A DNA stretch of 64,000 bases from Candidatus Uhrbacteria bacterium (GCA_016215325.1 JACRJV010000026.1:31955-95954), one strand, 5' to 3'. Positions 992-50,340 are shown, counted from the stretch's first letter. Translations and numbers: made by a program. The notes: generated by a model not told the origin, from the letters alone.

Positions 992-2821
992 TCACGGGGT
1001 TGGACTGTCCACAGCAGGTATGCTCTCTGATGGGGCCGCCTCCGGCGCTGCCGGGGGTTTGGGCACTCCAACCAAGAATTGCTCTGGCCAAGGGCAGTAG
1101 AAGCTTTTGAAAACCTTGGTTTCGACACGACCATCCGGATAATTGATGGTATAAGTGGCGACAGCAGAACCGCCCGGATGCGCGCGCTCAATCTGTTTGA
1201 CCTTGCCTTCGGGCAGCGTTTCGGTAGGGATGCGAATCGCCGGACCTGCGGGACTGGTGGTGAGCGTTGTCGGCCCTTCGATCGTTGACGTGCGGCCATC
1301 CGTGGTACCGTAAAATTCAAACACAACTCTGGTGCCGCTCACATAACCGTGCAACAGCATCGGACTGCCCGTATCATTAACGAAGCGGAAATCGGGGTTT
1401 GGGCTATAGATGGTCGCATCCAATCCCGGACCAATGGTGTTGCCATCACCATCTTTTTCGTAATAGCTTACGCGGTAGGAATGATTTTGGCGAGCGGTGA
1501 TAGGCAACCCCGCATTCATTACGGCGCGGAAGAGGGTTGTGGAAACTTGGCACAGCCCTCCGCCGAATTCTGGTATGGTCCGATTCTGTTTGATGACCAG
1601 CTCGGGAAGATACCCCGTGGTGTTATCAATGCGGCCCAGCGCCTTAATGGTGGAAAACTCTTCGCCCGGAGCAATGAGAAGCCCATTCAAAAATTTGACC
1701 CCGTTTTTGATGTTGCTGATACGGTTCGGGGGGCTGCCGGCAAACGACGTCACCGCTCGGCCAATGAGTTCGCGGATGCCGCTGGCTTGGGCTTGAGCAT
1801 TAAACCCGGTGGGTTTCGCAATTTGGATATCCAAGGAGACCGCATCGTCGGATGGAGCGGCCGGGACATCGCGCCGGAGCTCCAGTGCCGCAATGATGTC
1901 AGCGATAGCTCTTTCCTGATCAAGGACACGGCCCGCGACCGGGGGCTCAAACTCAATGACCTTTTTCCCTTCGATCACTAACTTGGGCTCGCGCGGCTCG
2001 ACAGTAAGGCCGGACGCAAGGCGCGCGACGTATTGGCTCACGACCTGGCGGTCGACCTCGGCCACCAACTGGCGATCGCGAGAGCCGGAAGCCAACCATG
2101 AGCCGATTTGCTCCGGAGCAATGACGATTCCCTCATGCTCGGGAATAGTACTCTTAATCTGGAGCGGCCGACCGATCATGGAACGGGCCCCTTCGAGCGC
2201 AGCCGAGACGCTCCCCAAATCAATAACCGGTTCTTGGACAATAGTTTCAATGTTCAAACGAGGGGATTCGATCTGCTGGAGCAAGCGCGTGACTTGTTCA
2301 AGCAGCGCTTCACGATCAATCGCTCGGCCAGGCTGGGTATCCGTGGCCACCTCAACATTGCCGGCATTTACGACCAAGCGCACGTCACGCAAAGGATAGT
2401 CAACGCGCAGTGCAATTGCATCAATCACCGACACTACGGCATCGCGATTCACCTTTACCAGTGGATCGACTGTTACCCCCCCAGCCATCGCCGCAACGAC
2501 CCCCCGCACTCGTTGGGCCAATGTCCCGGACCGACCCACGCCAACGGCTTGAGCAACCGAAGTATCTACATCAACCGCATATCCAACACTCTCCAGTGCG
2601 ATGGGGTACGATGCGCCATCGACGGTGATAGTGGCCCCCTCTTGCAAAACAGTGTTGGTGCGAGTCTCGACGGCCTGCCGAGCCTGCGCCGCTGTCAGTC
2701 CCCCGACCGGGACAGATCCCACCTGCACGCTCGGCAAAATGCGCCCAGAAAACAAAAACACACTCGCCCCGGCGATCGCCACAACGATGACGCTACTAAC
2801 AATCCAGAAAGTGGGTTTCAC
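992..2821 (-). CDS. VanW domain-containing protein with N-terminal signal anchor (ORF extends to 2986; GTG at 2821 gives a K-P-T-F-W-IVSSVIVVAIAGASVFLF membrane-anchor start)
   Basis: C-terminal region YSYRVSYYEKDGDGNTIGPGLDATIYSPNPDFRFVNDTGSPMLLHGY is VanW-like. An N-terminal TM helix is present. The upstream 5' extension overlaps divergent gene 2907..3563 and is Cys-rich/AT-rich, so it is unlikely to be coding. Confidence 0.6.
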   Translation of the reverse strand: MKPTFWIVSSVIVVAIAGASVFLFSGRILPSVQVGSVPVGGLTAAQARQAVETRTNTVLQEGATITVDGASYPIALESVGYAVDVDTSVAQAVGVGRSGTLAQRVRGVVAAMAGGVTVDPLVKVNRDAVVSVIDAIALRVDYPLRDVRLVVNAGNVEVATDTQPGRAIDREALLEQVTRLLQQIESPRLNIETIVQEPVIDLGSVSAALEGARSMIGRPLQIKSTIPEHEGIVIAPEQIGSWLASGSRDRQLVAEVDRQVVSQYVARLASGLTVEPREPKLVIEGKKVIEFEPPVAGRVLDQERAIADIIAALELRRDVPAAPSDDAVSLDIQIAKPTGFNAQAQASGIRELIGRAVTSFAGSPPNRISNIKNGVKFLNGLLIAPGEEFSTIKALGRIDNTTGYLPELVIKQNRTIPEFGGGLCQVSTTLFRAVMNAGLPITARQNHSYRVSYYEKDGDGNTIGPGLDATIYSPNPDFRFVNDTGSPMLLHGYVSGTRVVFEFYGTTDGRTSTIEGPTTLTTSPAGPAIRIPTETLPEGKVKQIERAHPGGSAVATYTINYPDGRVETKVFKSFYCPWPEQFLVGVPKPPAAPEAAPSESIPAVDSPTP

Positions 2822-2906
2822 AATACTATGGTGAGGATTATGTTGTATACTATCACCATATAATCCACATATCAACGCCCTGCCCAAAATATTAACACAC
2901 AAGCTT

Positions 2907-3563
2907 ATGTTGATATATGGCATCACCATGCAGGGGAAAAAGGAAGAAGTGCCCTCCGACGTTGCGGCATGGTTGGTTGATCGCATGAAAAAATATCCAA
3001 CGGTGGATTTTACAATTGATCGCGATGAAATGACGCGATTGAGTCCGCAACATCGAGAGCAAACGGCTGAGCTGATGAAGAAATTTTCTCGATTCTTTTA
3101 TCCCGAGCATAAGACGAGAGGAGAGAATGGTGTTCTTATAGTTGTCTTCCCGTACCAAAACGAAATATGGAGTGTACGGATCACCGGCGGCTTAGACGGC
3201 GAAGGAAATATCATTGGAAGGAGCGATCCTGAAATCAATACGAAGCTAAAACGACCGCTCCCTGCGCAACTGCGAAATGATATTGCAGGACTAACGGAAG
3301 AGAAAAATATTGAACAAGTCCAAGTCGGCGGCAACGAGGGCTTCAGGGCAAAAGTAAGAAGAGAAGATGAGCCATTGTTGAGCGAGCCAAGGGAGTTTTT
3401 TCCACTGCCGGCAGAACTCAAATGGTTATCGGAGATGACGATGAGCGGTGAACAATTCAATAATTTGATGAGTAGCCCCGAGAAAAAAGAGAGGGTAGTA
3501 AAGGCGTTGTACGAAAAAGATTGGGGTGCCTTACGAAAACTGAGAGGCGAGGAGTTGCCTTGA
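2907..3563 (+). CDS. hypothetical protein
   Basis: 218-aa ORF on the plus strand with protein-like composition, divergent from the VanW gene. No recognisable motif. Confidence 0.45.
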   Translation: MLIYGITMQGKKEEVPSDVAAWLVDRMKKYPTVDFTIDRDEMTRLSPQHREQTAELMKKFSRFFYPEHKTRGENGVLIVVFPYQNEIWSVRITGGLDGEGNIIGRSDPEINTKLKRPLPAQLRNDIAGLTEEKNIEQVQVGGNEGFRAKVRREDEPLLSEPREFFPLPAELKWLSEMTMSGEQFNNLMSSPEKKERVVKALYEKDWGALRKLRGEELP

Positions 3564-3617: not shown

Positions 3618-4493
3618 CTACCGTGAACGGACTTGGGCTTGACTCTTGGCCGACCGGCCGAACGCCGCGATCACATAGCCGGTGGTGTACGATGGGGATC
3701 CCCCGAGCTGGGCAGAGTTGACTACATCAAACACTTGCGCTGTTGTGGCCCCTCGGGCTTTGACAAAGGAGAGCAGCGCCGCAAGGCTCTGCTGGGAATC
3801 CGTGTCGACCAATTCCACCGCATCGACAGCAAGAGTTTTTAATAATTGCGCGCTCTTGCGCTCGCGGGCGGCGGCGGATTCTGCCGAATGATAATGCGAG
3901 AAGTCAATACTGGCGATCACGATTGCGTCCTTTGGCAACACCCGTGCAAGGGTCTTGCCCAATGCTTGGGCTTGGGCCACAGAATACGTCGAAGAGATCG
4001 CAATGGGGACAATCCGTGCCCCGGGGAATATCGCAGCAATCGGCTGCACTTGGGAATAGATGGAATGTTCAATGTTAAACAGTGCGGAGGTTTCTGGCAG
4101 CGGTACCTGCTGTTGGAGTGTTGTAATTGCTCCCCGATCCGCCTGCACAATCCCAAAGCGTGTTTGAAATGAATCGGTGGTCGTCACGATCGGCCACCCC
4201 CCAATGTCCTGGTGATTCGGCCCCAAGACCACAAACGTTCGCGGGCGAGTCAGAGCCGACAACCCCTTGTACAATGCAATGTTCAAGCCCATGGCATTGG
4301 GAATGTGATGGCTCACGATTGCGCCGTCCACGCGCGAGAATCCCAAAACAGAATACGGACGACGGCCACCGTTGTTGCGCGTGAGCAACCGCTCAACAAC
4401 CGAATCACGCACATCATGCACCCGCACGGCACGGGAAGGCAGTGCGGGTGCAGTGAGTACGATTGCGCTCAGCAGCACGGCAGAGAGCATCAT
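3618..4493 (-). CDS. MEMO1 family protein (AmmeMemoRadiSam system protein B-like) with predicted N-terminal signal peptide
   Basis: Motifs GPNH, EHS, SIDFSHYH match the MEMO1/LigB-like fold signature. N-terminus MMLSAVLLSAIVLTAPALPSRA is signal-peptide-like. The ATGA at 4490-4493 overlaps the stop of the upstream giant gene (translational coupling). Confidence 0.7.
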   Translation of the reverse strand: MMLSAVLLSAIVLTAPALPSRAVRVHDVRDSVVERLLTRNNGGRRPYSVLGFSRVDGAIVSHHIPNAMGLNIALYKGLSALTRPRTFVVLGPNHQDIGGWPIVTTTDSFQTRFGIVQADRGAITTLQQQVPLPETSALFNIEHSIYSQVQPIAAIFPGARIVPIAISSTYSVAQAQALGKTLARVLPKDAIVIASIDFSHYHSAESAAARERKSAQLLKTLAVDAVELVDTDSQQSLAALLSFVKARGATTAQVFDVVNSAQLGGSPSYTTGYVIAAFGRSAKSQAQVRSR

Positions 4494-7400
4494 TGGATGA
4501 CAAATGGATTATCCGGACCAAAGTTGTACTGATCGGGGTGCAGAATCCCGCGGATATTAGGGCCGTCTGCACGGAAGGTTCCTTGCTGGACCGCACGGGC
4601 ACGGTACACCACCGTCTGGGTGTTGCTGCCCCGCGGACCTTTGCCCACATGCAGGCGAACGATTTGGCCCTCGATTTCTTGGATGCCAACAATGCGCACG
4701 TCTTCGTCCTGCCGTCCCCCATCACCGAAATAGGTGATCGCGGAGGTGGGCTTGAGCCCTGAAGGCAAGTAGTCGGTGATCACATAGTCATTCTCCTCAC
4801 TACTCGGATCGATGCGATAGGTGAGGACCACATCCACCGTATCACCGACTCGCGTGACTGCCCCACCGCTGCTGCGATTACGATACCGGCGCTCAACCGA
4901 TAGTTTTGGATTGCGCGCCCCGTCATAGGTAACGGCCGGGAGGCGGGCGAACGAAACAACAGATGCAGAACCCTTGAGGTTCTTAATCGACAATTGTGAA
5001 AGTTCTTCCGCGGTGACTTCGACCGACTGATCACGCACCTGCCCATCCAGGCGCACGGCAATGGTGCGGGAACCGGCAACCAAATCAAACGTGGTCTCGG
5101 TCGATGGTGGCGCCGAAATACCCTGTGCGCGTACCCGAGCGGCTGCCCACAGCTCAAAATCGATCAAGTCTGAATCCCCTGCCCGTGCCTTACTATAGGC
5201 GTATTCAGAAAGCGCTTGGGCATCGGGGCTGCCAACAGCGATCGCCACGCTCACGGCCAATGCGCTCTGACGCAATGTCTGGACCTGATTGTCCCCGGGG
5301 ATCACGGCACTGGCGGCTTCGCGTGTAATCGATGGAGCAATGTGATCCTCAAAAATTGCCCGGGACTGATCGGTGGCACCCAAATTTTGGAAGCTTGCGG
5401 CAAGATAAATCCAATCTCCGACCGAAAGATCAGAACGCGAAGATAATTGCTCCAACTGTGGGAGGATTGCTGCCCGGACGGCGGAGAGGCCGTAGAATAC
5501 TTTTGCCGCAATGTGGACATCGCCAGTTTCTCCCGCTGCTATCTGTGAGAGCAAATATCGTTTTACCGACCCGGAATCATACAGGGTAGATTGGGGCAGA
5601 GCATTGACAAGACCAATGGTGGCATCCAAGTCACTGCTGCCATACGGCACGACAGCAACACCGCCATCCGGTTGTCTGTACGGGGTAATATCGGCCGTGT
5701 CCGCCGCGGGCGCGCTGCAGGACTGTTGGAAGTTCGGCAACAGTTCTTTGGCGACGCGGGGGCCCACCTCCCATTCGAGCCGCACGCCATCCGCATAGCA
5801 GGATTGCTGGAGATGGCTGACCAACGCGGCATCAGTTTGGTCGATAATGGTGAGTGTTGTGGTGCCGCTGGGGTTGCCCTTGATTGATAGTTTGCCGTCC
5901 TTGACCGATTGGCGATCCACTCGAAGTGCAACTTTATGCGAGCGGCGCACAGATATAACGCGCTCGATCGCATCGCGAAGCCCACCGGCAATGCCTTCAA
6001 TCGACACGCGGTGTTCCCCTTCAGGCAAAGCGCCCAAGGGAATATTGACCTGCGCAGTGCCGCTGACTGTTTTATCCAGGTTGAGCGTCGGACTTTTAAT
6101 GGAATATTGGACAGTGCTGGGGGGTTGCCCAGTGGCGGTTGCAGAGCGCACGACCATCACCGGTGCATCGCCCACAAGATACACTTCATTGAGAATCGAC
6201 CGGACAAAAAATGGCAAGTTGGTCGTAATCGATTTTATCGCAGACCCAAAATACAGATCACTGCTGGCCGCCTGCAACCGCACCCTCCAACCGGTGAGGT
6301 TGTCGGGCAGAGGAATCGTGAATTCGGTGCGTCCGTCGTTGTCGGTATCCTGCGTTGCCACAAATGCGGTATTCTTAAAATTCTTGCGTACATCCCCCAC
6401 CGGCAACCCACGGCTCCCATCCCCGCCCCCGCGTTCGGCACCCAACTGGTTGCCAGAAAACCCATACCGCAATTCAAACGGATGGGAAGTGCGCGTCTGG
6501 ATATCATAGACAAACCCGCGATAAGTTTCGGTCAGCACAGTATCGTCATACCCATAGAGGCTATAGAGTGCTTCGTCCACGAGGGTGAGTTCGGTGTTGG
6601 AAAGCTTGCCCTGCCCATCCGGCGTGGTCACCCGAGCGCGCGCCACGGCGCGATCCCCCGGGCGGTACGACGCTTTATCAAATTGGAGATCAATCGTGAG
6701 CTTGCGATCCTCCGTATCAAGCGAAAACGTGGCTTGCTCAATCCGTTGGAATCCCCGCGGCCCCCAAAATATTCCGCCGACCACCAACGTCGGGATGTCC
6801 CGCGCCAAAAATGTGTCTTTATAATTTGCTTCTGTTTGGACGGTGACGGATTCGATCCCAGAGCCCGATGCACGATATAGCAATACCTGCTGACCCGCGA
6901 TGGCAACCGGCTCGTTGCGTTCGTTAACGACCTGGGCTGTTATGGGCTGGCCGACCTTATAGAGTGCAGGAGTCCATTGGTCTTTACTATTGGCCAATAC
7001 CGGGTTCACGCGCAGATAACCGGGCTGTTGATCGGTGTCGCTCGATCGCAAGAACGAAGAAAAATACCACCCGGAAACATACCGATGCTCAAGAACCAGA
7101 CGGCCATTTGGGTCCACAGTCGAAAAACTCACTTTATACCAACCGTTTGTTTTTTTCACTGTCACAGAATAATCAACAGCCCCATTGCTATTGGTAAGCA
7201 AAGGGGGATGAGCCACCGCTACTTCTTCGACGCGCTCGACATACTCATGCACCGGATAGGTTGTCTTGGTAATAGGGTCAAACCGGCGTTCTTTGACGAC
7301 GGCTTCGGTCCAATGGTAATCAACGGTCACGTTGATTGTTGCATTTGCAAGCGGTGAGCCGACATAGTTCGTTTCGGCTGGTTTCGACAAATCGATCGTT

Positions 7401-9547
7401 GATGTCTTCACGTGGAACGTCGTTGTTTTCTCCTTCTGCTCGCTGTCGATATCCATCATAATAGTCGGCCCATAGACGCCGAACGATGCGCTCGCCGTAA
7501 TCTCCGCTTCTTCTTGTTCTACCGGCGAAACAGATAGATAGGCATAGTACGGGTACGATGTGGTCAGCACATATTGGGGCTTGAGCCGGAGCACGGCGTT
7601 ACCGGAAGCATCCAATCGCACTCGCCCGGTTACGCTCTGGGGAATATTGCCAGAGTATTGGAGATCCATGAGCCCCACTGGTTCGCCGCTAAAAAAACGC
7701 GCTTGAATATCGAGAGCGATTTCATCACCGACAAACAGTGCGTCTCGTTTCGGCATGACGGTGATTTGATACGAAGGCTTCGTGAACGTGGCGACTTCAA
7801 TGCCTTTATCCAAGAGCACTTGATCACCCTGGCGCATGCGCACGGAGTAATACCCCGGTTTGAGGGTATTGATCGCGAGTTTCCCGCTGAAGGTGTTTTG
7901 ACGACTGATTCGACCCGTTGTGGTGGCATAGACAGGAATTGACTGTGACTCGCCCCCCGGCCCGAAGTATTGATTGTACAACCCTTCAAACCCCCAAAAC
8001 TGTTGGTCAATGAGCTCGATCGTCACTTCCTGGTCGGCCATCGTTTTGCCGGGGGCGCTCACAACACCCCAAACCCACACCTCATCGGTGGGCAAATACA
8101 TCTTTCGATCGGTGGAAAGAAAACTGTACATGCGCTCCTGGGGCGCAACACGGACATCATCCACCGGAATAAACGCCACATCAGTGCCAGCGCTCACTTG
8201 CACCAGCGCACCGATCCCATGGGCGCTGCTGGATGCCTCCCGCTCTGGAGGTGATGAATATTTCCATTGTTCAGGCGTAGCAAACTGCGCAACCCCCCGG
8301 TCATCGGTTTGCGCGAGTGGCACAGAGGAACTCGCCACGGTGGCGTTGGCAACGCCCGTGGATTCGTCTATTTTACGGACCCAGAGCACGGATTGCGATT
8401 CGCTCACTGACAGCGCCGTGTGCAATGGAGTCACCTGGAACCACAAAAATTGACCCCCACCGGTGGCCTGGGGTGCCATCAACAGATACTGCCCGCCCTG
8501 GAGGCTTGTTGGCAAGACCAGCCGTGCCGATGTTTGGCTTTCTTCCTCTGCAGTAAAGGTTGCTGCAAAGGTGCTTACGCGGTTGCGTTCAGGCGGCGCG
8601 TACCGGGGATTGTAGAGACCATAGATACTCCATTGATTCTCGAAGATCATGGATTTCTTCCATTCTTGCTCAAATTCAGACGGATCAAAACGATAGAGTT
8701 CAAAATTCCACTTACGCTTGAGGGCATGCTCATTAACCGAAACGTAAAATGTTGGGCTTTGGCGATCAAAATCGGGCAACGTGCTATCGCTATAGATATA
8801 CCAATAGCTTGGATCCTTCGATTCTTGAGCACCAGGGGTTGTTGCCGGATCTGCCTCTGTTTCGAACGAAACAACAATATCATCGGAGAGCGTATCCTTC
8901 CCATCTTGCTTGGGGAGGGCCGCAAAACCGCTCTTTAACCGGAATGTATAGACCGTGCGGTACTGAAGCTTCTGCTGCGGCGTAACAACAACTCGATTAT
9001 TGTCGACCTCCACTGCTGCGGGTATTGCGGGATCCAAACTCCAAAGACCATCGACTGAACCCAATTGCGGGCGATTGAATTGGAGCTCGATGCCGGTATC
9101 AATGGGCACGCGGGTTGCCAGATGCCGCGGAACCGAAGAAATAAGCGCCAAATTCGATTTGGTTTGGATCGCAAAGGAAACCGGTGCGGCAGAGCCGTTA
9201 GCAGCCGCCAAGGCAATGGTATATACGGTGTTTTCTTTCAGCGGCGCGTTGGCCGTAATTTCAAAAATGTTGGACGTTTGCGCAACGGGCTTGACAGTGA
9301 CATCTGTTGCAGGGGTCACGCGCAAATTCTCCTGCACCTGGACGCTGGTCATCGCGCCTTCGGTCTGTAAATAAATTTTACTGTTTGCGTCCATGATGCG
9401 GCTGGTATTGCCAATCGCGGTGGTATAGAGTTGATACCCCCCAGAGGCCACGGGCTTACTCCCCTTCCGCATTGCCAGAAACCCTCCGGCAACAATCAAC
9501 AACAAGACAACGATCACAGTGAGTGTTCGTTTTATGCCATGAGACAT
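4490..9547 (-). CDS. alpha-2-macroglobulin family large surface protein with N-terminal membrane anchor and apparent thioester-less TED (ORF extends to 9598)
   Basis: About 1700 aa; N-terminal TM TLTVIVVLLLIVAGG. A2M-domain-like block NLTGWRVRLQAASSDLYFGSAIKSITTNLPFFVRSILNEVYLVGD. Helical TED-like region where PYGSSDLDAT sits in place of PxGCGEQxM. C-terminal VITDYLPSGLKP resembles the bacterial A2M MG10/RBD motif (xxEDxLPAGxE). The size fits ECAM/YfhM-type proteins. Confidence 0.55.
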   Translation of the reverse strand: MSHGIKRTLTVIVVLLLIVAGGFLAMRKGSKPVASGGYQLYTTAIGNTSRIMDANSKIYLQTEGAMTSVQVQENLRVTPATDVTVKPVAQTSNIFEITANAPLKENTVYTIALAAANGSAAPVSFAIQTKSNLALISSVPRHLATRVPIDTGIELQFNRPQLGSVDGLWSLDPAIPAAVEVDNNRVVVTPQQKLQYRTVYTFRLKSGFAALPKQDGKDTLSDDIVVSFETEADPATTPGAQESKDPSYWYIYSDSTLPDFDRQSPTFYVSVNEHALKRKWNFELYRFDPSEFEQEWKKSMIFENQWSIYGLYNPRYAPPERNRVSTFAATFTAEEESQTSARLVLPTSLQGGQYLLMAPQATGGGQFLWFQVTPLHTALSVSESQSVLWVRKIDESTGVANATVASSSVPLAQTDDRGVAQFATPEQWKYSSPPEREASSSAHGIGALVQVSAGTDVAFIPVDDVRVAPQERMYSFLSTDRKMYLPTDEVWVWGVVSAPGKTMADQEVTIELIDQQFWGFEGLYNQYFGPGGESQSIPVYATTTGRISRQNTFSGKLAINTLKPGYYSVRMRQGDQVLLDKGIEVATFTKPSYQITVMPKRDALFVGDEIALDIQARFFSGEPVGLMDLQYSGNIPQSVTGRVRLDASGNAVLRLKPQYVLTTSYPYYAYLSVSPVEQEEAEITASASFGVYGPTIMMDIDSEQKEKTTTFHVKTSTIDLSKPAETNYVGSPLANATINVTVDYHWTEAVVKERRFDPITKTTYPVHEYVERVEEVAVAHPPLLTNSNGAVDYSVTVKKTNGWYKVSFSTVDPNGRLVLEHRYVSGWYFSSFLRSSDTDQQPGYLRVNPVLANSKDQWTPALYKVGQPITAQVVNERNEPVAIAGQQVLLYRASGSGIESVTVQTEANYKDTFLARDIPTLVVGGIFWGPRGFQRIEQATFSLDTEDRKLTIDLQFDKASYRPGDRAVARARVTTPDGQGKLSNTELTLVDEALYSLYGYDDTVLTETYRGFVYDIQTRTSHPFELRYGFSGNQLGAERGGGDGSRGLPVGDVRKNFKNTAFVATQDTDNDGRTEFTIPLPDNLTGWRVRLQAASSDLYFGSAIKSITTNLPFFVRSILNEVYLVGDAPVMVVRSATATGQPPSTVQYSIKSPTLNLDKTVSGTAQVNIPLGALPEGEHRVSIEGIAGGLRDAIERVISVRRSHKVALRVDRQSVKDGKLSIKGNPSGTTTLTIIDQTDAALVSHLQQSCYADGVRLEWEVGPRVAKELLPNFQQSCSAPAADTADITPYRQPDGGVAVVPYGSSDLDATIGLVNALPQSTLYDSGSVKRYLLSQIAAGETGDVHIAAKVFYGLSAVRAAILPQLEQLSSRSDLSVGDWIYLAASFQNLGATDQSRAIFEDHIAPSITREAASAVIPGDNQVQTLRQSALAVSVAIAVGSPDAQALSEYAYSKARAGDSDLIDFELWAAARVRAQGISAPPSTETTFDLVAGSRTIAVRLDGQVRDQSVEVTAEELSQLSIKNLKGSASVVSFARLPAVTYDGARNPKLSVERRYRNRSSGGAVTRVGDTVDVVLTYRIDPSSEENDYVITDYLPSGLKPTSAITYFGDGGRQDEDVRIVGIQEIEGQIVRLHVGKGPRGSNTQTVVYRARAVQQGTFRADGPNIRGILHPDQYNFGPDNPFVIQ

Positions 9548-9641
9548 AGGATGATCGCCGGTAATACCGGGAGTGCGAAGAAATAAGCCTACTCGCACAA
9601 TATCATTTTTTTTCGTATAATGGCAACATCAATGCAATATC

Positions 9642-32287: not shown

Positions 32288-33607
32288 TTAATAGTCTCGA
32301 AGCTTTTCGATGCCTTCGTAACGCTTAATTTTTTCTAACGACTTGGCCTCGATTTGTCGAATACGTTCGCGGGTGACGCCGAATTCTTGGCCGACTTCTT
32401 CCAACGTATGTGTAACGCCATCCACCAGCCCAAACCGCATTTCCAAAATTTTCTGCTCTCGTGGAGTCAATCCCCGGATCGCGTCCTGCACGTAGCCGCG
32501 CAAGAGTTGGAGTTGCGCCGCGCGGTCAGGGGTAACGCTCCGGACGTCCTCGATAAAATCCTCGAGCGTCGAATCTTCCTCATCCTCCCCAACCGATGTT
32601 TCCAACGAAACGGTATCTTGGCTGATCTTGATGATGTAGTGGATTTTTTCGATCGGCTCGCTCATTTCCGCCGCAATTTCCTCCGGCAATGGCTCACGAC
32701 CCAGGTCTTGGATAAGCTGCCGTTCAATCTGCTGGAACTTATTGATTGTCTCCACCATGTGTACGGGGATGCGGATCGTCCGGCTCTGGTCGGCCAATGC
32801 CCGCGTAATCGCCTGCCGGATCCACCACGTGGCGTATGTCGAAAACTTGTAGCCTTTCCGGTATTCAAATTTCTCCACCGCGCGGAACAACCCAATATTG
32901 CCCTCTTGGATCAAGTCGAGCAACGATAACGATTTGCCCACGAACTTTTTGGCAATCGACACCACCAAACGGAGGTTCGCTTCAATCAATTTCTTTTCGG
33001 CCTCTCGCTCCCCTCGCTCCTTGCGTTTGGCTAATTGTATTTCCTCCTCGCCGGTCAACAGCGGGACTTTGCCGATTTCGCGCAAATACATCTGGATAGA
33101 ATCCTGTGCAATCTCGCCCAAATTAAAATTCATGATCTCTTCGTCTTCTTCCTTCTTTGCAACGCCCCCTCCCGCAGCACTCCGATGCCGCCGCGTATGC
33201 GAGGCGGGCTTGGCCGGCTCGGGCTTGGGTGCCAAGCTCACATTCACATTAATAAATCCGGTCGATTCCACCACCCGCGCCCCCATCCGGTCCACCTGAT
33301 CAAGGATATCTTCTGCGATGGACACGTATTCTTCCAGGTACGGGAGCGTATTCATGAGCTCTGTCTCGGTAATAAAGTTGCGCTGTCGCGCTTTATTAAT
33401 CAGAGCATCCAGCTCTTCTTTCGCCGGCGGCAAAATTTTCTCGACAACTTCTTTTTCTTTGGGCCTACTACGGATCGAGTGCTTACCCTTGTGAACACGT
33501 GGGCGCGAAAATTTTTTTGCTCGCGCGTTCACGCGGGAACGACGCGCCGGTTTACGCGCGACCTTCTTGATTTTACGCTTGCCGTGTTTTTTCTTTTTTT
33601 GTGCCAT
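32288..33607 (-). CDS. rpoD: RNA polymerase sigma-70 factor RpoD (ORF track starts at an alternative TTG at 33667; ATG MAQKKKK at 33607 is likely)
   Basis: Regions 1.2 to 4: [24 protein letters not shown] and [29 protein letters not shown]. Confidence 0.9.
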
Positions 33608-33617
33608 AGATGCATCA

Positions 33618-35450
33618 TCATGCCGGGTGAGCGGAAAGCTCCCGTGTGAGTTGTACTGCGCGCTCAAGTAACGTATTCAAATGGTCAGTTTCTGCCGGCG
33701 GTTGACCGGAATGCTCAATTGCATTCAACTCTCTTTGAATCCGCTCTAATTCCTGCTGAAAATACCGGCGGCGGATAAGCCGCGCCAGGCGCTCAAGCTC
33801 GCGCGTTCGATCGACGATTTCAAGATGATGGTACAACTCCTCCGCGGCTGTGATGACGCGGGCGTACAATGGAGTTCCTTGGGGTATTTGTTCCATCTGC
33901 CCTTGCGGCTCCTGTGTCCCATACCATGCCCGAAACTCTTCCTGGCTTAACATTGTTGGCTCAACAATGCGTTTAACGGCACCCGAAAATTCTGGCCCAA
34001 GTAGCAATAACAATCCCATAAACGCGTGCTCAATGTCAAGGGATGCACGGTCTGCCTTCTGGGGATAATTGTCCTTTGGTCCGGCCGCGGCGGCAGAAAC
34101 CGCGGGCAGGCGAATCGATTGGATCCATTGCACGATCGCAGGTTGGGAATATCCCAGCGTATCGGCCAATGTTTTAATCCAAAATGATTGTTCCAACGGG
34201 TTTTTGATTTGGGCCAAAATGGGTAAAAATTCTTTCCCAATCTTTTCTTGCGTCGGCAATGCAGAAACATCCAACCCCTGTGTTACCCGCTGCCACAGTA
34301 CCTCCACAAATGGCCGGAATTGCGCGGACACCTGCTTCCAAACGCCCGCATCATTGCGGATACACTCGTCGGCGTCTTTGCCCAGCCCTTCGGGGATGGT
34401 GAGCATGCCGATCTTGAACTCCGACCGAAGCAGCAGCTCAATCCCCCGTTTGGCCGCTGCAGCGCCAGCCAAATCCATGTCAAAACTAAGGACCACGCGC
34501 TGCGTAAACCGCTTGAGCAATTGGAGATGTTCCAGAGTGAGCGCCGTGCCGCAGGTGGCAACTGCGTTGGCGACCCCTGCCTGGTGCGACGCAATCACAT
34601 CCATGTACCCCTCCAAGATGATCACGCTATTGGCAGAACGGATGGCCATCTTTGCCTGATCGATCCCATACAATACCGTCCGCTTATCATAGAGGATAGT
34701 TTGCGGCGTATTCATGTACTTTGCTTCCTCCACAACAGCGCGGGTGTTGGGCGTTGCGGCGGCCGCGCTGGGCAGAATCCTCCCGCCAAAGCCCACCAAC
34801 ATCCCCCGCGCGTCGCGGATCGGGAACATGATGCGGCCCCGGAACCGGTCGTAATAGGGTGTGGGGAAATTGCCGCGACTGCCAGCCGGGCGTTCGATCA
34901 CCAGCCCGCTGTCCAAAATATCAACGGGATCAAGCTGTTGGACACTCAAATATTGCGATAGATTATCCCAACCACTGGGTGCATACCCCACTTGCCACGC
35001 CCCAAGGGTCTCGGGCTGAATCGCCCGGGTGCCGGTCATATACTCCCATGCCAGGCGATTATTGGCGGGCTGTAATTGTTGCTGGTACCATTGGAATGCC
35101 GTTTCTAACACCCTGGTAACACGCTCTTTTTTACTGGCGCTTGCTCCGGCAGATTGGCGTTCTGGCAGTGTGACGCCCGCTTTTTGGGCCAACATCTTGA
35201 GCGCTTCGGGGAATTCGATATTTTCGATTTTCATCACAAACGAAAAATGATCCCCGCCTTCGCTGCAGCCAAAGCAGTGCCACACCTGCTTGGTCTGGCT
35301 AACCATAAAGGAGGGACTCTTTTCTTCGTGGAAGGGACAGCGCGCTTTCCAGCTACTTCCTGCCTGTGCCAGGGTGCCCACATATTCGCGGATAAGCTCC
35401 ACGATATCCAGCCGGGATTTAATTTCTTCGGTCGGAGTCATACAGTTCAC
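33618..35450 (-). CDS. dnaG: DNA primase
   Basis: N-terminal zinc-binding [30 protein letters not shown] and the TOPRIM motif EGYMDVIA. Confidence 0.9.
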
Positions 35451-36484
35451 CTCCGCTGGACGGTAATATGAAAATGTCCCCTATGGCCAGGGGGTTTACC
35501 ATTGGGCCATACTTCGGCTCCAGCCCCGCTCCTGCCGACGCCATTGACGGTATTATAATTAAACTCATTGAGGGCCGGATCATCAATAATAATTTGAGTG
35601 ATATGGAGACGTTCACGATTTGCATAATAGAACGCCGCAATTCGACGTGCCTCTTCTCCATTGGATGGTTTGTCAATATCAAGACCGCGGCCGTTGCCAT
35701 CCGTATCGGCGTGAGGTGACGCACCAGCGCCCCCAACCTGTTGTGAATCATGACCGCCGACAATGGATTGGACATCTACTGGTATTCCCGCCGCAACTGT
35801 TGCGTTGAGGACCTCGCAAATATATGGACTCACGTTGATTCTCCGCCCGTCAAAACGACTGGTAATGACACCACTCGATAGCTCCCTTGCATCATTGGGC
35901 TGCACAAAATGCAGCCCTGCTCTTTCGATGAGGTCCTTACATTCTTGCGAAACCGCACCCACCGTCGGGGTCCCGGGGGGTACTTGAGTCTGTGGTGATG
36001 CCTGACTGGTCGCCCCAGTAAGGCCGGAGGTATAATCCTGAGCCGTTCCGCCTTCGGCTTCCGTGATCCCTACTTTTGGGATGTCAACCTTCTGCTGCTT
36101 TGTCACCTCGGGGAATTTAATTGCAACGGTTTTAGTTAAATCGGGGTTAATGGCATTCAGCAGCAACACGGCCCCGAGCGCTAATCCAAGCCCAACGATG
36201 GCGCCCCACATAATCTCGCTGGATTCCTCCACCTTGCCGCTGTCACCGCCGGCGGTAATGCGCTGAAGCCCAGCCCATAAAATCATGACGATCGCCGCAA
36301 CCCCTGCGACCTTTGTACCAAAATCCACGATATCCACAACAAGATCGCCAATGCTGTTTTCAGTAATGTTAGAGAGTTCTACCTTAAAATCGGATGAAGT
36401 AAACCGCGAAGCGGTTGCGCCAACACTAAACGGGAGGATCAACAAAATCCCCACCAATGGAATGGAACAAAGGAATTTTTTCAT
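35447..36484 (-). CDS. secreted T4SS-pilin-like (VirB2/TrbC-type) N-terminal module fused to an M15/LAS-like zinc peptidase domain
   Basis: Signal peptide, then two hydrophobic helices around QRITAGGDSGKVEESSEIMWGA (VirB2-like). C-terminal SPHADTDGNGRGLDID and RGHFHITV resemble the VanY/M15 motifs (SxHxxGxAxD, EPWHF). Confidence 0.55.
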   Translation of the reverse strand: MKKFLCSIPLVGILLILPFSVGATASRFTSSDFKVELSNITENSIGDLVVDIVDFGTKVAGVAAIVMILWAGLQRITAGGDSGKVEESSEIMWGAIVGLGLALGAVLLLNAINPDLTKTVAIKFPEVTKQQKVDIPKVGITEAEGGTAQDYTSGLTGATSQASPQTQVPPGTPTVGAVSQECKDLIERAGLHFVQPNDARELSSGVITSRFDGRRINVSPYICEVLNATVAAGIPVDVQSIVGGHDSQQVGGAGASPHADTDGNGRGLDIDKPSNGEEARRIAAFYYANRERLHITQIIIDDPALNEFNYNTVNGVGRSGAGAEVWPNGKPPGHRGHFHITVQRR

Positions 36485-36559
36485 GCGTCCTTACTTTACC
36501 ACAAAAATAGTGGCTTTGACGAGTGTGGATGAGGCTGAGCAAATCAAGAAATCACTCAA

Positions 36560-37570
36560 TTAATACGGATCGATCGGGCGAATCGGTGGCGACCCGTCTA
36601 AAACCGTGATTGTCATTCCTGAATTATCTGGTTGCCGGCCATCAAATGTCCGTGCCTGAGGATCCCCATTGGATGTATCAGAGGGAATGTCGATATTATT
36701 TGGATTGCCCTGGAAGTCTCCGCCGGTATCATGGAAATAAACGTAGAAGTCCCGCGCCTCATGCGCTTGGTTCTGATTATTCACCCACTTTCTAACATTA
36801 ACCTTGGCCCATTTCCCAAATAACGGCGAGTCCCTTCCGACTGCGCCAGAAACATAGTTACACTCCCCGCGATACAACATTTCTAATGTACAGACCCCCT
36901 CCTTACCTGCAGCCGGTGGTGTGGCAGAATTGCCTATCCTTCCCTCCGTTGTCGCCGGTCCATCACCATCAACAGGCCAGTAATGCGTAACTCGATAGGG
37001 TTTCCCATCCGCAGCATTTGTTGAAATCGCCTCCCCCCATTCCCCGGCTCGACCCCCTCGGATATTGCGAGCGCCTCCTCCACTGCCACCACCACCAATG
37101 CGACTGACTGGTTTTATCCCCACCTCTGGTTTTTTTGCCTCAATCGAATTCTTGACCTCCGGGAACTTAATAGGCCCAAGCAATGTCAGGTCCGGATTGA
37201 TGGTATTCAGTATCAGAACACTGCTTAACGCAATGCCCAGGCCGATGATCGCCTCCCACATCATGTCCCCGCTTGTTTTGACGCGATCCGCATTGCCCGC
37301 GGCCACAACCCTTGTAATACCGGCGATGATAATCATCACCAGCGCCGTCACACCGGCTACTGGCACTAAAAACGTAACTAACCCCTCAATCAAATTTGCG
37401 ACCCCATTGCCGCTTTCATCCACCAGGTCGGTGAGTTTAAGATTGGGATTGTTAAAATCGATCTTGGAAACCGATTGTGCCCAGACAAAGCTGGGAATGG
37501 CCAGGAGCCAGGTTCCAGTGGCCAGGGCGATACGGTGGGGACGACGCATACAAAAAATCCCAAATGCCAA
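36560..37570 (-). CDS. secreted T4SS-pilin-like N-terminal module fused to a 3D (MltA/Rpf-like) domain; paralogue of 35447..36484 (start may be 37549)
   Basis: The N-terminal module is alignable with the neighbour (VAGVTALVMIIIAGITRVVAAGNADRVKTSGDMMWEAIIGLGIALSSVLILNTINPDL). C-terminal AVGRDSPLFGKWAKVNV ... DTGGDF ... IDI is the 3D-domain signature. Confidence 0.6.
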   Translation of the reverse strand: MAFGIFCMRRPHRIALATGTWLLAIPSFVWAQSVSKIDFNNPNLKLTDLVDESGNGVANLIEGLVTFLVPVAGVTALVMIIIAGITRVVAAGNADRVKTSGDMMWEAIIGLGIALSSVLILNTINPDLTLLGPIKFPEVKNSIEAKKPEVGIKPVSRIGGGGSGGGARNIRGGRAGEWGEAISTNAADGKPYRVTHYWPVDGDGPATTEGRIGNSATPPAAGKEGVCTLEMLYRGECNYVSGAVGRDSPLFGKWAKVNVRKWVNNQNQAHEARDFYVYFHDTGGDFQGNPNNIDIPSDTSNGDPQARTFDGRQPDNSGMTITVLDGSPPIRPIDPY

Positions 37571-37660
37571 TTCCTAATTTCTAATGTCCGCCAAGGGCGG
37601 AGCAGCCTTTGGCTGGAAATGCATCTACACCAACATTTTATATTCCAAATTGCGCATTTA

Positions 37661-38107
37661 TCATTCCACATTCAACATTCCAATCTGCTCCACAAACTTC
37701 CGACCTGTCTCAAAAAAATTATATTTCGATAACTCTGCTTTTGGAACCCAGCGCACATCGTTGATCTCTTCTTCCAAGCATGTGGGTTCCCCGCCCACAT
37801 ACCGACACCGGAAACACACCAAGTGGATCTGGACATGACGCTCGCCAAAATCCCAGGTATGGCTCACCGGGCGTGGGAACAATTCCAATGGCTCTACATC
37901 CACCCCAAGCTCTTCTTTGAGCTCCCGCACGCAAGTCTGCTCCAATGTTTCGCCAAAATGGTTGGTGCCGCCCGGGAATTCCCACACCAAGTGAACCGCG
38001 GGGTTAGTCGGCTCATTGCGCTGGCTTAACAACACCTTCCCGTCGTGTTCAACATAGCCAAGGACAACCAGGATTTGCTGTTGTTGCATATGTATTGAGA
38101 CGACCAA
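37661..38107 (-). CDS. NUDIX hydrolase
   Basis: Nudix box GGTNHFGETLEQTCVRELKEELG. Confidence 0.8.
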   Translation of the reverse strand: MVVSIHMQQQQILVVLGYVEHDGKVLLSQRNEPTNPAVHLVWEFPGGTNHFGETLEQTCVRELKEELGVDVEPLELFPRPVSHTWDFGERHVQIHLVCFRCRYVGGEPTCLEEEINDVRWVPKAELSKYNFFETGRKFVEQIGMLNVE

Positions 38108-48756: not shown

Positions 48757-50340
48757 TCACTCTGCATCCGGAGCCTCGATCAGCCCCAACTTGACAAGGC
48801 GAGAGCGGATAGCGCACTTCCGTCGGCCAAAAGCCGTTGAAATATCCTCGATGTCACTGCCCGCGGTATACTGGTCTGTGAGCAATGCGTCGTCTGCCTT
48901 GCTCCAGGCGCGGTAGGCATTGGGGTACTCCTTGCGAATCCTGTCTACAGCGTAGGCTTTTTGCGCCCTTCCAACAAGTGGGACGACGGGTTTTTTCTTT
49001 GGTTCCTCCGATAATTGCCCCCCGCAAGCAACAACAAAATTATTCTGCATTCGTGAGAATTCTTCAGGGTTAATGGTGCCAAACGCATCACGCGTCTGTT
49101 GGCTGCGTTGCCGCAGCGCATGGTCATATTCGAGCACGTGGACATTGATGGTAAGCGCCGTCTGATTCCATCCGGACAAATAGAGCCCTTCCATGGTTCG
49201 CACCCGTGAGAGCGCCACATAGCCCTGCCCTTCCACAAACGCATGCTCTAAATCCACGTAGGCGTAATCGAGCGACATCCCCTGGCTTTTGTGAATAGTA
49301 ATTGCCCAGGCCAGACGCAAGGGCACCTGCGAAATTTGAGCCAGCACCCGCCCATGCTCTTCCAACGACCAGGACGCGGGTTCGGCAAGAATTGTCCGCC
49401 CCCCACGCGTTTGGACGATTGGATACTGCGTATCGTCATCAAAGTCGACCACCACCCCCAATGTTCCATTCACAAACGCACCCGTTATACTATTTTTGGT
49501 AAACATCACGGATGCTCCTTTTTTAAGCAACAATTGTTCGGGCGAAAGGCAGCCGCGCTTGAGCTGCTCTGCCAATGCCGCACGACCAGAATACGTCATG
49601 TCATGACGCACCGGCTCCCCGGGGATGCGTGCGAGTTCTGCACTGTTGATACGATCCACATCAACCGTATGCGGGTAGAGCTTGGGCGTATCATTGCTCA
49701 ACCGTGTGGGATCCGCGATGCAGCGAGTACTCAACTGCGTGCAATGCGCATCGGTGATCGCATTGTTGCGCAGCGCAGAAAGAATAGACAACAATGTTTG
49801 ATCTTCTTGCCGGTAATGCTCTTCAAGATAGCACACAAATGGGCTCACTTCCGCCCAAGCTTGAGATTCAAACGCAAATTGCGCGAGTGGCTCCCCCGGG
49901 CGCGACACCGGCGGGAGTTGAAAAAAATCGCCCACAAACAATACTTGCATCCCCCCAAATGGCTCATCGCGGCGTTTGACTTCGCGACATACGCGGTCCA
50001 CATTGCCCAAGATCGCCCCATCCAGCATCGAGATTTCATCAATTACTAGTACCCGCGTCCGATCAATGCGCTTGGCTACGCGCTCATTGCTGGCAATGCG
50101 GTCGATATCCCAATTGGAAAGATTCTTGCTAATGCCAATCCCGCTCCAGCTGTGCACCGTCATGCCGCCCAAGTGCGTTGCCGCAATGCCCGTGGAAGCC
50201 GTCACCGCCACATCAATCTTTGCCTGTTTTAAATACCGGACATACGCATTGGTCACATGCGTCTTGCCGCTTCCGGGCTCCCCGGTTAAAAACACGTTCG
50301 CGCCGGTCTTGAGGATATCCAGCGCTTCGGATTGGAGCAT
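48757..50340 (-). CDS. PIF1/RecD-family ATP-dependent DNA helicase
   Basis: Walker A TGEPGSGKTH, VLVIDEISM Walker B, and SF1B helicase motifs through KSQGMSLDY. Confidence 0.8.
   Translation of the reverse strand: MLQSEALDILKTGANVFLTGEPGSGKTHVTNAYVRYLKQAKIDVAVTASTGIAATHLGGMTVHSWSGIGISKNLSNWDIDRIASNERVAKRIDRTRVLVIDEISMLDGAILGNVDRVCREVKRRDEPFGGMQVLFVGDFFQLPPVSRPGEPLAQFAFESQAWAEVSPFVCYLEEHYRQEDQTLLSILSALRNNAITDAHCTQLSTRCIADPTRLSNDTPKLYPHTVDVDRINSAELARIPGEPVRHDMTYSGRAALAEQLKRGCLSPEQLLLKKGASVMFTKNSITGAFVNGTLGVVVDFDDDTQYPIVQTRGGRTILAEPASWSLEEHGRVLAQISQVPLRLAWAITIHKSQGMSLDYAYVDLEHAFVEGQGYVALSRVRTMEGLYLSGWNQTALTINVHVLEYDHALRQRSQQTRDAFGTINPEEFSRMQNNFVVACGGQLSEEPKKKPVVPLVGRAQKAYAVDRIRKEYPNAYRAWSKADDALLTDQYTAGSDIEDISTAFGRRKCAIRSRLVKLGLIEAPDAE

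Follow-up and report, generated by a model that had tools for sequence, protein, structure and literature searches.

Tandem fusions of pilin-type modules to predicted peptidoglycan hydrolase domains upstream of dnaG-rpoD in Candidatus Uhrbacteria

Gene structure of the locus

Two adjacent ORFs, A and B, are encoded on the minus strand of the analyzed window (the whole 64-kb stretch of DNA; Table 1), where they lie directly upstream of dnaG and rpoD (in the order ORF A, ORF B, dnaG, rpoD), as a preliminary description of this DNA had stated. The CPR setting assumed there agrees with the name, Candidatus Uhrbacteria, under which identical proteins are kept by NCBI. The NCBI model of ORF A is shorter (329 aa) and starts at the ATG at position 37549. 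In the spacer of 75 nt between ORF A and ORF B, no terminator-like site was found. The ATG of dnaG follows the TGA stop codon of ORF B by only 6 nt, and its ribosome-binding site (GGAGG) falls within the last codons of ORF B; the pair is apparently cotranscribed with dnaG-rpoD. The true start of rpoD is probably further downstream than the listed TTG. Neither T4SS genes (VirB4, VirB6, coupling protein) nor pilin-module genes besides the pair were found in the 64-kb window, and no candidate immunity gene lies beside the pair.

Table 1. Features of the locus (positions count from the first letter of the window; AF2, AlphaFold2 model)
Feature	Coordinates	Strand	Description
Promoter-like −35/−10 pair	37635..37664	-	Upstream of ORF A; consensus match only
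ORF A	36560..37570	-	336 aa from TTG start; pilin-module/putative MltA-like-domain fusion; 100% identical to NCBI Candidatus Uhrbacteria protein
ORF A signal-peptide-like segment	37478..37570	-	Residues 1-31, ends VWA/QS (putative cleavage); AF2 helix 11-34
ORF A T4SS_pilin-type two-helix module	37181..37408	-	Residues ~55-130, ends LNTINPDL; hydropathy; AF2 helices 56-89, 94-124
ORF A Gly-rich linker	37010..37180	-	Residues ~131-187; pLDDT <50 over 131-179; GGGGSGGG at 159-166
ORF A C-terminal domain	36563..37009	-	Residues ~188-336; putative MltA-like (3D-type) glycan-cleaving domain
ORF B	35447..36484	-	345 aa; pilin-module/predicted LAS-peptidase fusion
ORF B signal-peptide-like segment	36416..36484	-	Residues 1-23, ends VGA/TA (putative cleavage); hydropathy peak 4-22; AF2 helix 5-22
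ORF B T4SS_pilin-type two-helix module	36131..36355	-	Residues ~44-118, ends LNAINPDL; hydropathy; AF2 helices 44-77, 82-112
ORF B low-complexity linker	35957..36130	-	Residues ~119-176; pLDDT <50 over 114-174
ORF B C-terminal domain	35450..35956	-	Residues 177-345; predicted LAS-fold zinc peptidase domain
dnaG	33618..35441	-	ATG at 35441; L004 and L007 orthologues with DnaG Pfam domains
rpoD	32288..33667	-	Listed TTG start overlaps dnaG; L004 and L007 orthologues with Sigma70 regions 1.2-4

Pilin-type modules and C-terminal domains

The N-terminal ∼160 aa of ORF A and ORF B aligned with 37% identity (E = 5e-21), and both modules terminate in the motif INPDL; judged by sequence, these parts are paralogous, as the preliminary description had maintained. 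At the start of each protein is a signal-like hydrophobic stretch that carries an AxA-type site; two more hydrophobic helices follow (Kyte–Doolittle peaks), which, according to hydropathy and the AF2 models, are joined by a short charged loop. Both features favor the previous reading of this region as a signal peptide plus a VirB2/TrbC-like module, but the scores of the two proteins themselves against PF18895 (T4SS_pilin) were 20.5 bits (ORF A) and 25.4 bits (ORF B; E = 1.5e-5), which is just below the Pfam cut-off of 26.6 bits. The same model was matched by all 11 close family members (best E = 4.5e-7) and by 118 of the 129 more distant fusion proteins (best E = 2.4e-26 and 6.8e-27). Despite their individual sub-cut-off scores, the modules of the window proteins are placed, by sequence, in the Patescibacteria T4SS_pilin family. 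The conserved positions of the module (G73, A76, G84, G92, G110, L111, L121, N122, N125, P126, and L128) are identical between the fusions and short stand-alone pilins adjoining virB4. The window proteins are not small pilins, however; ∼200 residues follow the module.

The C-terminal domain ("head") of ORF B is predicted, from its modeled fold and its motifs, to be a LAS-fold zinc peptidase. It contains S256-P-H258, GLD269-ID, and H334-RG-H337-F-H339, of which S256, H258, D269, H337, and H339 do not vary among five homologues. When the head was scanned alone against Pfam (E ≤ 10; Peptidase_M15* and VanY included), no match was obtained, and the LAS assignment was rescued by fold and profile evidence: pneumococcal VldE, a LAS-fold L,D-endopeptidase, was the top match by both structure and sequence profile, with a borderline E-value of 0.071 in the sequence-profile search of the PDB and with both motifs in register. 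An hhalign comparison with the M15_4 heads of paralogues gave an E-value of 0.26, again with the motif in register. The closest type is the one comprising VldE (Spr1875, Streptococcus pneumoniae) and "motif 3" of the mycobacteriophage TM4 tape measure protein (PMC11667670), not the VanY/M15 models; thus, the motifs and the LAS fold of the previously claimed M15/VanY-like peptidase were confirmed, but not its family. VldE is targeted by a LysM domain instead of a pilin module; moreover, the His-Asp loop of ORF B is longer by 4 inserted residues (H-D spacing of 11, not 7), and in this region AF2 confidence was lower (mean pLDDT of 66 over residues 241-260).

The head of ORF A may be MltA-like, but this assignment is weak and not statistically secure. 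Its motifs GRD247SP, HD281TGG, and NID294IP follow the order found in the MltA/3D lytic transglycosylases (E. coli MltA, PDB 2ae0; PF06725), that is, a first position that is often Asp, D-T/V-G-G, and x-D-I; accordingly, D261, D297, and the catalytic D308 of MltA were matched by eye to D247, D281, and D294. Members of the MltA family supplied the top seven Foldseek matches in the PDB, all of them weak (E = 0.024-0.36), and none of the matches reached E < 1e-3. In contrast to fold and motif order, HMM and profile comparisons gave no similarity: neither this head nor 10 family members matched any Pfam model, 3D included, at E ≤ 10; the score of the domain profile against E. coli MltA was 1.0 bit, a value equaled or exceeded by 87 of 2000 shuffles; and the hhalign probability was 0.2. 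Of the "clear 3D domain" described before, the Asp motifs and a faint structural resemblance are what is left. Within the family, E209-G210, H280-D281-T-G, and D294 are invariant, HDTG and the last Asp also among the CPR and phage homologues. D247, in contrast, is kept in most members only, being replaced by Ala in slot B of L007, His in P0014, and Asn in L189. The family also has features of its own, namely invariant Y-x-P and M-E-G-G, the His preceding DTG, and, in CPR members, a Cys pair. It had no match in PHROGs, in the PDB (by sequence), or in deposited phage genomes; its only sequence relatives are uncharacterised proteins of uncultivated phages, and homologues of the head are located in phage structural modules.

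Conservation of the pair and distribution of the fusions

The order NUDIX–A–B–dnaG–rpoD is kept in the related genomes L001, L004/L005, and L007, among lineages whose DnaG proteins are 57-71% identical. The heads are 3D-like and LAS in the window and L001, M15_4 and glucosaminidase in L004/L005, and M15_4 and 3D-like in L007. In all four related genome types, one predicted glycan cutter is paired with one predicted peptidase, which upholds the two specificities in tandem proposed earlier. Between the window and L001, identity amounted to 74-76% for the N-modules, 71% for DnaG, and 83% for NUDIX, whereas the heads were 38% identical or unalignable. As far as these sequence comparisons go, the N-modules diverge at the pace of the housekeeping genes around them, and the heads change much faster; across related genomes, position and N-modules of the pair are retained, and the enzyme heads are swapped. 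In L004/L005, the slot B gene is followed by a 69-aa remnant (the 3′-part) of a 3D-like head that was displaced; in L004, this remnant is the sole small ORF after slot B.

The preliminary description had regarded the fusion pairing as not established. No paper describing a pilin-module/cell-wall-enzyme design was found in the literature search, but such fusions are common: C-terminal extensions are present on most pilin-module proteins sampled in Patescibacteria. Across that group, members of this pilin subfamily usually carry a passenger C-terminal to the module, and the window pair is no one-off. Many pilin-module proteins are encoded just downstream of virB4. A VirB4-like gene (E ∼1e-200), upstream and on the same strand, was present in 40 of the 98 survey loci for which 3 kb or more of upstream DNA was available; counted by fusion ORF and within the available flanking DNA, virB4 was seen in the loci of only 27 of 139, and none was seen for the other 112. 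One T4SS_pilin/Peptidase_M15_4 fusion (L055) is encoded 1 kb downstream of virB4. A LAS domain of the ORF B type, in this case without a pilin module (P0022), is encoded in a T4SS cluster together with TraC-like, VirB4-like, and Peptidase_C39_2 genes. VirB1 is absent from most Patescibacteria genomes that have VirB2, according to a published account (PMC12102498).

Possible function of the pair

The explanation favored here, tentatively and at slightly less than an even chance, is that the pair constitutes conserved, exported peptidoglycan hydrolases, a Patescibacteria version of the T4SS-associated wall-opening enzymes, which a pilin subunit delivers in cis, and which act on the wall of the producer and carry exchangeable heads. 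After Sec export and removal of the signal peptide, the two helices would form a hairpin within the cytoplasmic membrane, by analogy with VirB2/TrbC, with the short charged loop (R87/R96/K98 in ORF A) in the cytoplasm and the C-terminus with its enzyme head facing outward. The disordered linker of 45-60 residues would let the head reach the wall. Head A, if indeed an MltA-like, 3D-type double-psi beta-barrel, would cut glycan strands, with D294 in the place of D308, the catalytic residue of MltA. Head B, of the VldE/tape-measure-motif-3 type, would cut stem peptides, with H258, D269, and H339 as predicted metal ligands and H337 as the predicted catalytic histidine; VldE itself cleaves L-Ala|D-iGlx. 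Jointly, the pair could cut both bond classes of peptidoglycan, locally and in the producer's own wall, the heads serving as exchangeable cassettes. The association with T4SSs is supported by the module signature shared with virB4-adjacent pilins, the loci containing virB4, L055, P0022, and the reported occurrence of VirB2 without VirB1; it is weakened by the lack of T4SS genes in the window and the small share of fusions with virB4 in their loci.

VirB1-type hydrolases of Gram-positive conjugative T4SSs include CwlT (ICEBs1), TraG (pIP501), and PrgK (pCF10). As in such enzymes (described in general terms in PMC12102498), an N-terminal hydrophobic segment would provide the hold in the membrane, glycan- and peptide-cleaving activities are predicted to be combined, and the wall would be opened locally for an envelope-spanning machine; a homologue of the ORF B head is encoded in a cluster of this kind. 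In contrast to the bifunctional VirB1-type hydrolases, the two predicted activities are split over two proteins, a VirB2-type pilin module replaces the single helix as anchor, the predicted domains are MltA-like and VldE-like LAS instead of SLT/lysozyme and CHAP/NlpC-P60, and the genes adjoin dnaG-rpoD, outside any T4SS cluster. Tandem, sequence-divergent paralogues with a PF18895/TrbC-type two-helix module are also known from the VirB2-like pilin arrays of Patescibacteria, that is, the T4SS locus of Southlakia epibionticum and the "Sec secreted array" of TM7x (passages of PMC10633639, PMC12102498, and PMC12857230). The proteins described in those passages are small pilins in T4SS clusters, with no mention of enzyme heads, whereas the window genes encode predicted catalytic domains of 150-170 aa. 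A globular domain grafted onto the C-terminus of a pilin module is likewise found in modular type IV pilins (Streptococcus sanguinis PilB; bioRxiv 10.1101/2021.01.27.428410), but these belong to an unrelated pilin class with an unrelated assembly machine (type IV pilus, as opposed to T4SS-type pilin), and the grafted domains are adhesive, not peptidoglycan hydrolases.

The apparent cotranscription with dnaG-rpoD, amid housekeeping genes, fits growth-linked autolysins equally well, in which the pilin-like hairpin would be a mere membrane anchor whose tie to T4SSs was lost or never existed, and the heads would remodel the own wall during growth and division. The stable position of the pair despite the divergence of DnaG, the lack of T4SS genes in the window, and the scarcity of virB4 near the surveyed fusions point in the same direction. 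However, a mere anchor should neither retain the invariant Gly/Ala/Asn/Pro signature of virB4-adjacent short pilins nor diverge at the slow pace of the neighboring housekeeping genes when the heads are being replaced; head replacement this fast, of which the remnant in L004/L005 is one trace, would be unusual for core division autolysins, and a T4SS cluster also contains the ORF B type of domain (P0022). This reading is considered rather unlikely.

In F and T pili, both termini of the VirB2-family pilins are on the exterior. If the window proteins, the modules of which belong to this family, polymerized into or capped a T4SS-type pilus, their long flexible linkers would permit display of the heads, which could then breach a host bacterium's wall in an episymbiotic association. 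Turnover of the heads much faster than the genomic background is expected of host-interface proteins; the nearest relatives of both heads are virion-associated, wall-piercing proteins of phages; and the pilin arrays of Southlakia are essential for epibiotic growth, according to PMC10633639. Against this stand the lack of any report, in the literature examined, of a pilus made of PF18895 proteins, and the possible steric clash of a 150-170-aa head on every subunit with the tight helical packing of VirB2. Sequence does not separate self from host as the target, and the dedicated host-wall-attacking apparatus envisaged in the preliminary description is not borne out by a window devoid of T4SS genes, in which the pair is apparently cotranscribed with dnaG-rpoD. 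This reading is judged improbable.

That the proteins are polymorphic antibacterial toxins, with a conserved N-terminal delivery module and swappable toxic heads directed against competitors, is highly improbable despite the exchanged C-terminal cassettes and the displaced 3′-remnant in L004/L005, which is reminiscent of orphan modules in polymorphic toxin loci, because the tight spacing (75 nt between ORF A and ORF B, 6 nt from ORF B to dnaG) accommodates no candidate immunity gene, slot B of L004 is followed by no small ORF other than the head remnant itself, and the pair shares synteny with housekeeping genes instead of being located in a variable island.

In a broader reading, for which the chances are estimated to be low, the VirB2-type module of Patescibacteria would be a general carrier that places exchangeable passengers, among them wall-piercing enzymes shared with phage virions, on a T4SS-derived filament or its base, and the "armed pilin" pair would cut glycan and peptide bonds either of the host's wall or of the own wall at the machine. 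If true, this would explain why most of these genomes have VirB2 without VirB1 and why epibiotic growth depends on pilin arrays.

A tandem gene pair ahead of dnaG and rpoD

The tandem pair claimed in the preliminary description is a real feature, with both ORFs found on the minus strand in the interval proposed for them. The description as a whole was largely right, although it needs correcting on two points, namely which type of peptidase is present and how strongly a 3D domain was called. Deposited proteins that are identical to both gene products carry the name Candidatus Uhrbacteria, and ORF A is represented in NCBI by a 329-aa model starting at the ATG at 37549. The neighboring genes lie on the same strand and are tightly packed: the dnaG start codon (ATG at 35441) is 6 nt from the stop codon of ORF B, the GGAGG ribosome-binding site of dnaG falls within the last codons of ORF B, and dnaG is followed by rpoD. 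A promoter-like hexamer pair was found upstream of ORF A, and no terminator-like site was detected in the 75 nt separating ORF A from ORF B. Genes for NUDIX, PEPCK, GNAT, and class-IV aminotransferase proteins precede the pair, and the remaining large ORFs of the window have housekeeping or transport functions. Among the large ORFs elsewhere in the 64-kb window, no VirB4, VirB6, or coupling protein was found; probing the window ORFs with the pilin-module profile returned only ORF A and ORF B, and a VirB4 query from CPR returned none.

Some other genes of the window deserve mention in their own right. The rpoD ORF, as listed, has a TTG start and overlaps dnaG by 50 nt, and its product has a strongly basic N-terminal stretch, rich in Lys and Arg, before the sigma-70 regions. 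The window further encodes a 1702-aa protein resembling bacterial alpha-2-macroglobulins (matches to Big_5, MG2, and bMG10), which is a large investment for such a genome, a protein of 664 aa combining VanW and PG_binding_4 domains (another cell-wall-associated protein nearby), and, amid housekeeping genes, a PIF1-like helicase (PF05970, E 5e-38).

Features of the window and of other loci discussed in the text
Feature	Position	Strand	Description
ORF A	window 36560-37570	minus	336 aa from TTG start
ORF B	window 35447-36484	minus	345 aa
rpoD ORF	window 32288-33667	minus	sigma-70 factor
Alpha-2-macroglobulin-like protein	window 4490-9598	minus	1702 aa
VanW/PG_binding_4 protein	window 992-2986	minus	664 aa
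PIF1-like helicase	window 48757-50340	minus
Remnant of a 3D-like head	L004:10036-10245; identical copy L005:5329-5538		69-aa ORF
Head A-family protein of uncultivated phage	L008:2962-3789		structural module
Head A-family protein of uncultivated phage	L009:3181-4029		structural module
Head A-family protein of uncultivated phage	L173:1240-5685		structural module
Head A-family proteins of uncultivated phages	L174-L189		structural modules
CPR-type T4SS cluster	L171:1-8626		TraC-like, VirB4-like, 666-aa Peptidase_C39_2, two unknown genes, P0022

Over their first ∼160 residues, the products of ORF A and ORF B are 37% identical (E 5e-21). Both begin with a hydrophobic segment that resembles a signal peptide and carries an AxA-type site, followed by two more hydrophobic helices (hydropathy; AF2), the second of which ends in LN(T/A)INPDL in either protein. 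The sole family match is to Pfam T4SS_pilin (PF18895), with 20.5 and 25.4 bits, and searches of Pfam and NCBIfam with the full proteins and with the isolated C-terminal domains gave nothing beyond these matches. The pilin-type module described earlier stays below the PF18895 cut-off (26.6 bits) in the window proteins but is matched by all 11 close relatives (best E 4.5e-7), and by more distant ones with up to E 2.4e-26; the predicted PF18895 assignment is, thus, firmer at the level of the family than for the window proteins singly. Short pilins linked to virB4 share the module's conserved positions with the fusions, that is, with proteins combining the module with a C-terminal passenger domain. 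A conjugative pilin from Aeropyrum pernix gave weak matches to the helical hairpin, which were no different from the helical background. R87 of ORF A (window 37310-37312) and its counterpart in ORF B lie at the end of helix 1 that is predicted to face the cytoplasm; this arginine is invariant in the dnaG-linked family, and the position is occupied by Tyr or Trp in most other surveyed pilin modules of Patescibacteria.

The C-terminal heads

When the C-terminal domain of ORF B (head B) was scanned alone against Pfam at E≤10, no model matched, and an exhaustive HMMER search over 1.84 billion representatives yielded only five relatives, among them P0021 (49% identity), P0024 (another pilin fusion), and P0022 (without the pilin module). 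In the alignment of these relatives and P0007, the zinc-ligand signature claimed for this protein is retained: S256, H258, D269, H337, and H339 are invariant columns and form the LAS-enzyme motifs S-x-H...D and H-x-H, with a 4-residue insertion between His and Asp in ORF B. A profile of five heads of this type, compared with the PDB, matched best to VldE (E 0.071), with both motifs in register. VldE is an L,D-endopeptidase of LAS fold that cleaves the L-Ala/D-iGlx bond, and its domain is “motif 3” (MT3) of the tape measure protein of mycobacteriophage TM4 (PMC11667670). Judged from its sequence, head B is a predicted LAS zinc peptidase. Given the VldE match, the earlier LAS call named the correct kind of enzyme, the closest known relative being VldE/MT3 and not VanY/M15. 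Comparison of head B with the Peptidase_M15_4 (M15_4) heads of paralogues by hhalign also placed the motif in register, the score being not significant. Neither head family matched an entry in PHROGs.

For the C-terminal domain of ORF A (head A) and nine relatives, Pfam gave no match at E≤10, and phmmer and profile searches of PDB sequences with head A gave no meaningful one; superoxide reductase and ClpP appeared there as chance matches. Its sequence relatives are three pilin fusions from CPR and otherwise only uncharacterized proteins (E 1e-12 to 5e-6) encoded in phage structural modules, in the terminase–portal interval of a P22-like contig and beside T4-type neck/sheath genes in another. 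On uncultivated viral contigs, the domain resides inside proteins of 221-1481 aa. No match was obtained when deposited phage genomes were searched by tblastn with head A and a family member from a viral contig. The family, whose other known members are all encoded by uncultivated phages, is probably an unannotated family of virion-associated wall hydrolases.

Invariant in this family are Y-x-P near the start, M-E-G-G, H-D-T-G, and a final Asp. When an AF2 model of head A (pLDDT 73-92, residues 220-330) was compared with the PDB using Foldseek, the best seven matches were all MltA-family lytic transglycosylases, none of them passing E 1e-3 (3czb, E 0.024; E. coli MltA entries, E 0.076-0.36; ∼100 columns); N-domains of NSF, likewise double-psi barrels, were lower in the list. 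Alignment by eye pairs GRD247, HD281TGG, and NID294 of ORF A with VASD261, LD297VGG, and FD308IY of MltA, respectively, where D308 is the catalytic residue. The family profile scored E. coli MltA no higher than shuffled controls, hhalign of the family against E. coli MltA was not significant, and the first of the three Asp residues (D247 in ORF A) differs among the relatives, whereas the HDTG Asp and the final Asp do not. Because of this profile result and the variable first Asp, what had been called a clear 3D domain is better termed MltA-like. Based on the model and the motifs, head A is probably MltA-like and would cleave glycan strands.

Exchange of heads at a fixed locus

Three more genome types have the gene order NUDIX–A–B–dnaG–rpoD. 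Across these related loci, the N-modules specific to each position (slot A and slot B) are retained, whereas the heads differ. Slot A carries a 3D-like head in the window and in L001 but Peptidase_M15_4 in L004/L005 and in L007; slot B carries a LAS head in the window, a divergent one in L001, Glucosaminidase in L004/L005, and a 3D-like head in L007. Each pair, thus, consists of one predicted glycan cutter and one peptidase, in either slot. This rule rests on only four genome types because scans of genomes and metagenomes for further syntenic pairs mainly returned more distant pilin-module genes.

Heads change far more quickly than either their carriers or the genomic background, as is evident from comparing the window with L001: identity is 74-76% for the N-modules, 71% for DnaG, 83% for NUDIX, 84% for PEPCK, and 63% for the aminotransferase, versus 38% for head A, and head B cannot be aligned by BLASTP. 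Directly after slot B of L004/L005, a short ORF encodes the remnant of a 3D-like head (profile A6, E 2.2e-5); its sequence includes “...IPFLIHDHGKAFEGR”, and DHG now stands in place of the DTG motif. This ORF seems to have been left behind when one head replaced another. Together, the comparison shows that enzyme heads are exchanged like cassettes while the chromosomal locus stays fixed.

Distribution of pilin fusions and their proposed role

Patescibacteria account for a large share of bacterial diversity. Pattern-based scans derived from the N-module alignment retrieved 80 loci from metagenomes and 79 from species-representative genomes, the latter almost all belonging to many different classes of Patescibacteria; the NPDL motif in the patterns biases this survey toward the present subfamily, and ORF starts were assigned mechanically. 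By our own ORF calling and a module HMM, at least 100 aa past the module were present in 66 of the 98 pilin-module ORFs from genomes and in 72 of the 91 (complete) ones from metagenomes. Pfam confirmed T4SS_pilin in 118 of 129 fusions, and ∼1/10 of the 129 have a peptidoglycan hydrolase head recognized by Pfam (genomes: SLT, three times, SLT_3, VanY/M15_4, M23, and NlpC/P60; metagenomes: VanY, three times). The fusion pairing had been taken as apparently not an established system; the architecture is widespread in the survey and apparently undescribed, as no description of pilin–hydrolase fusions was found in the literature searched, the journal coverage of which is incomplete.

VirB4 (E ∼1e-200, full-length matches to the VirB4 of L171) is encoded upstream on the same strand in 48 survey loci; when only the 98 loci with 3 kb or more of upstream DNA are considered, 40 have it. 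Of the 139 fusion ORFs, 27 lie in such VirB4-bearing loci, as do 13 of the 35 short pilins. In L055 (Saccharibacteria), the virB4-adjacent fusion joins T4SS_pilin to Peptidase_M15_4, and in P0022 a head-B-type LAS domain is preceded by an extended helical region and, before that, a hydrophobic segment. Patescibacteria are known to have VirB2-like pilins and tandem arrays of them (PMC12102498; PMC12857230), and the T4SS and such arrays are essential for epibiotic growth in Southlakia, the one species tested (PMC10633639). In PMC12102498, VirB2 is treated as a small protein, most VirB2-carrying genomes are without VirB1, and genes downstream of virB4 for homologues of peptidases and lysozyme are reported as essential in Southlakia.

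ORF A and ORF B are predicted to encode two exported, tethered enzymes that jointly cut the glycan and peptide moieties of peptidoglycan, which is well grounded for ORF B and plausible for ORF A. A VirB1-like wall-opening role associated with a T4SS or pilus is favored over that of a generic autolysin because the carrier module evolves slowly and cannot be told apart from virB4-linked pilins, because T4SS clusters contain both the head-B type and an M15_4 fusion, and because most of these genomes otherwise lack VirB1. The autolysin is still a live alternative, in line with the dnaG–rpoD operon context and a window devoid of T4SS genes, and so is attack on the wall of a host, with which the fast turnover of the heads and the phage-virion affinities of both would agree. 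That the heads are polymorphic toxins with cognate immunity is unlikely because the locus has no room for an immunity gene. Compared with modular pilins and VirB1-like hydrolases, the pair is a variation on both and not a separate category.

The role of pilins and the identity of VirB1 in Patescibacteria are questions on which the fusions bear: they suggest that wall-cutting may be delivered on the pilin itself, which is directly testable with recombinant domains and in genetically tractable Saccharibacteria. They also define two unannotated, putative hydrolase domain families, that of head A also occurring in uncultivated phages. Beyond hydrolases, ∼90% of the C-terminal extensions on surveyed pilin modules have no Pfam match (alignments A8/A9; loci L011-L169). 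In a structure-universe preprint, PF18895 is the dominant domain of freshwater-specific structural clusters, which fits with many different passengers. The A8/A9 consensus contains recurrent Cys positions in the passengers, suggesting that these may be disulfide-rich extracellular domains.
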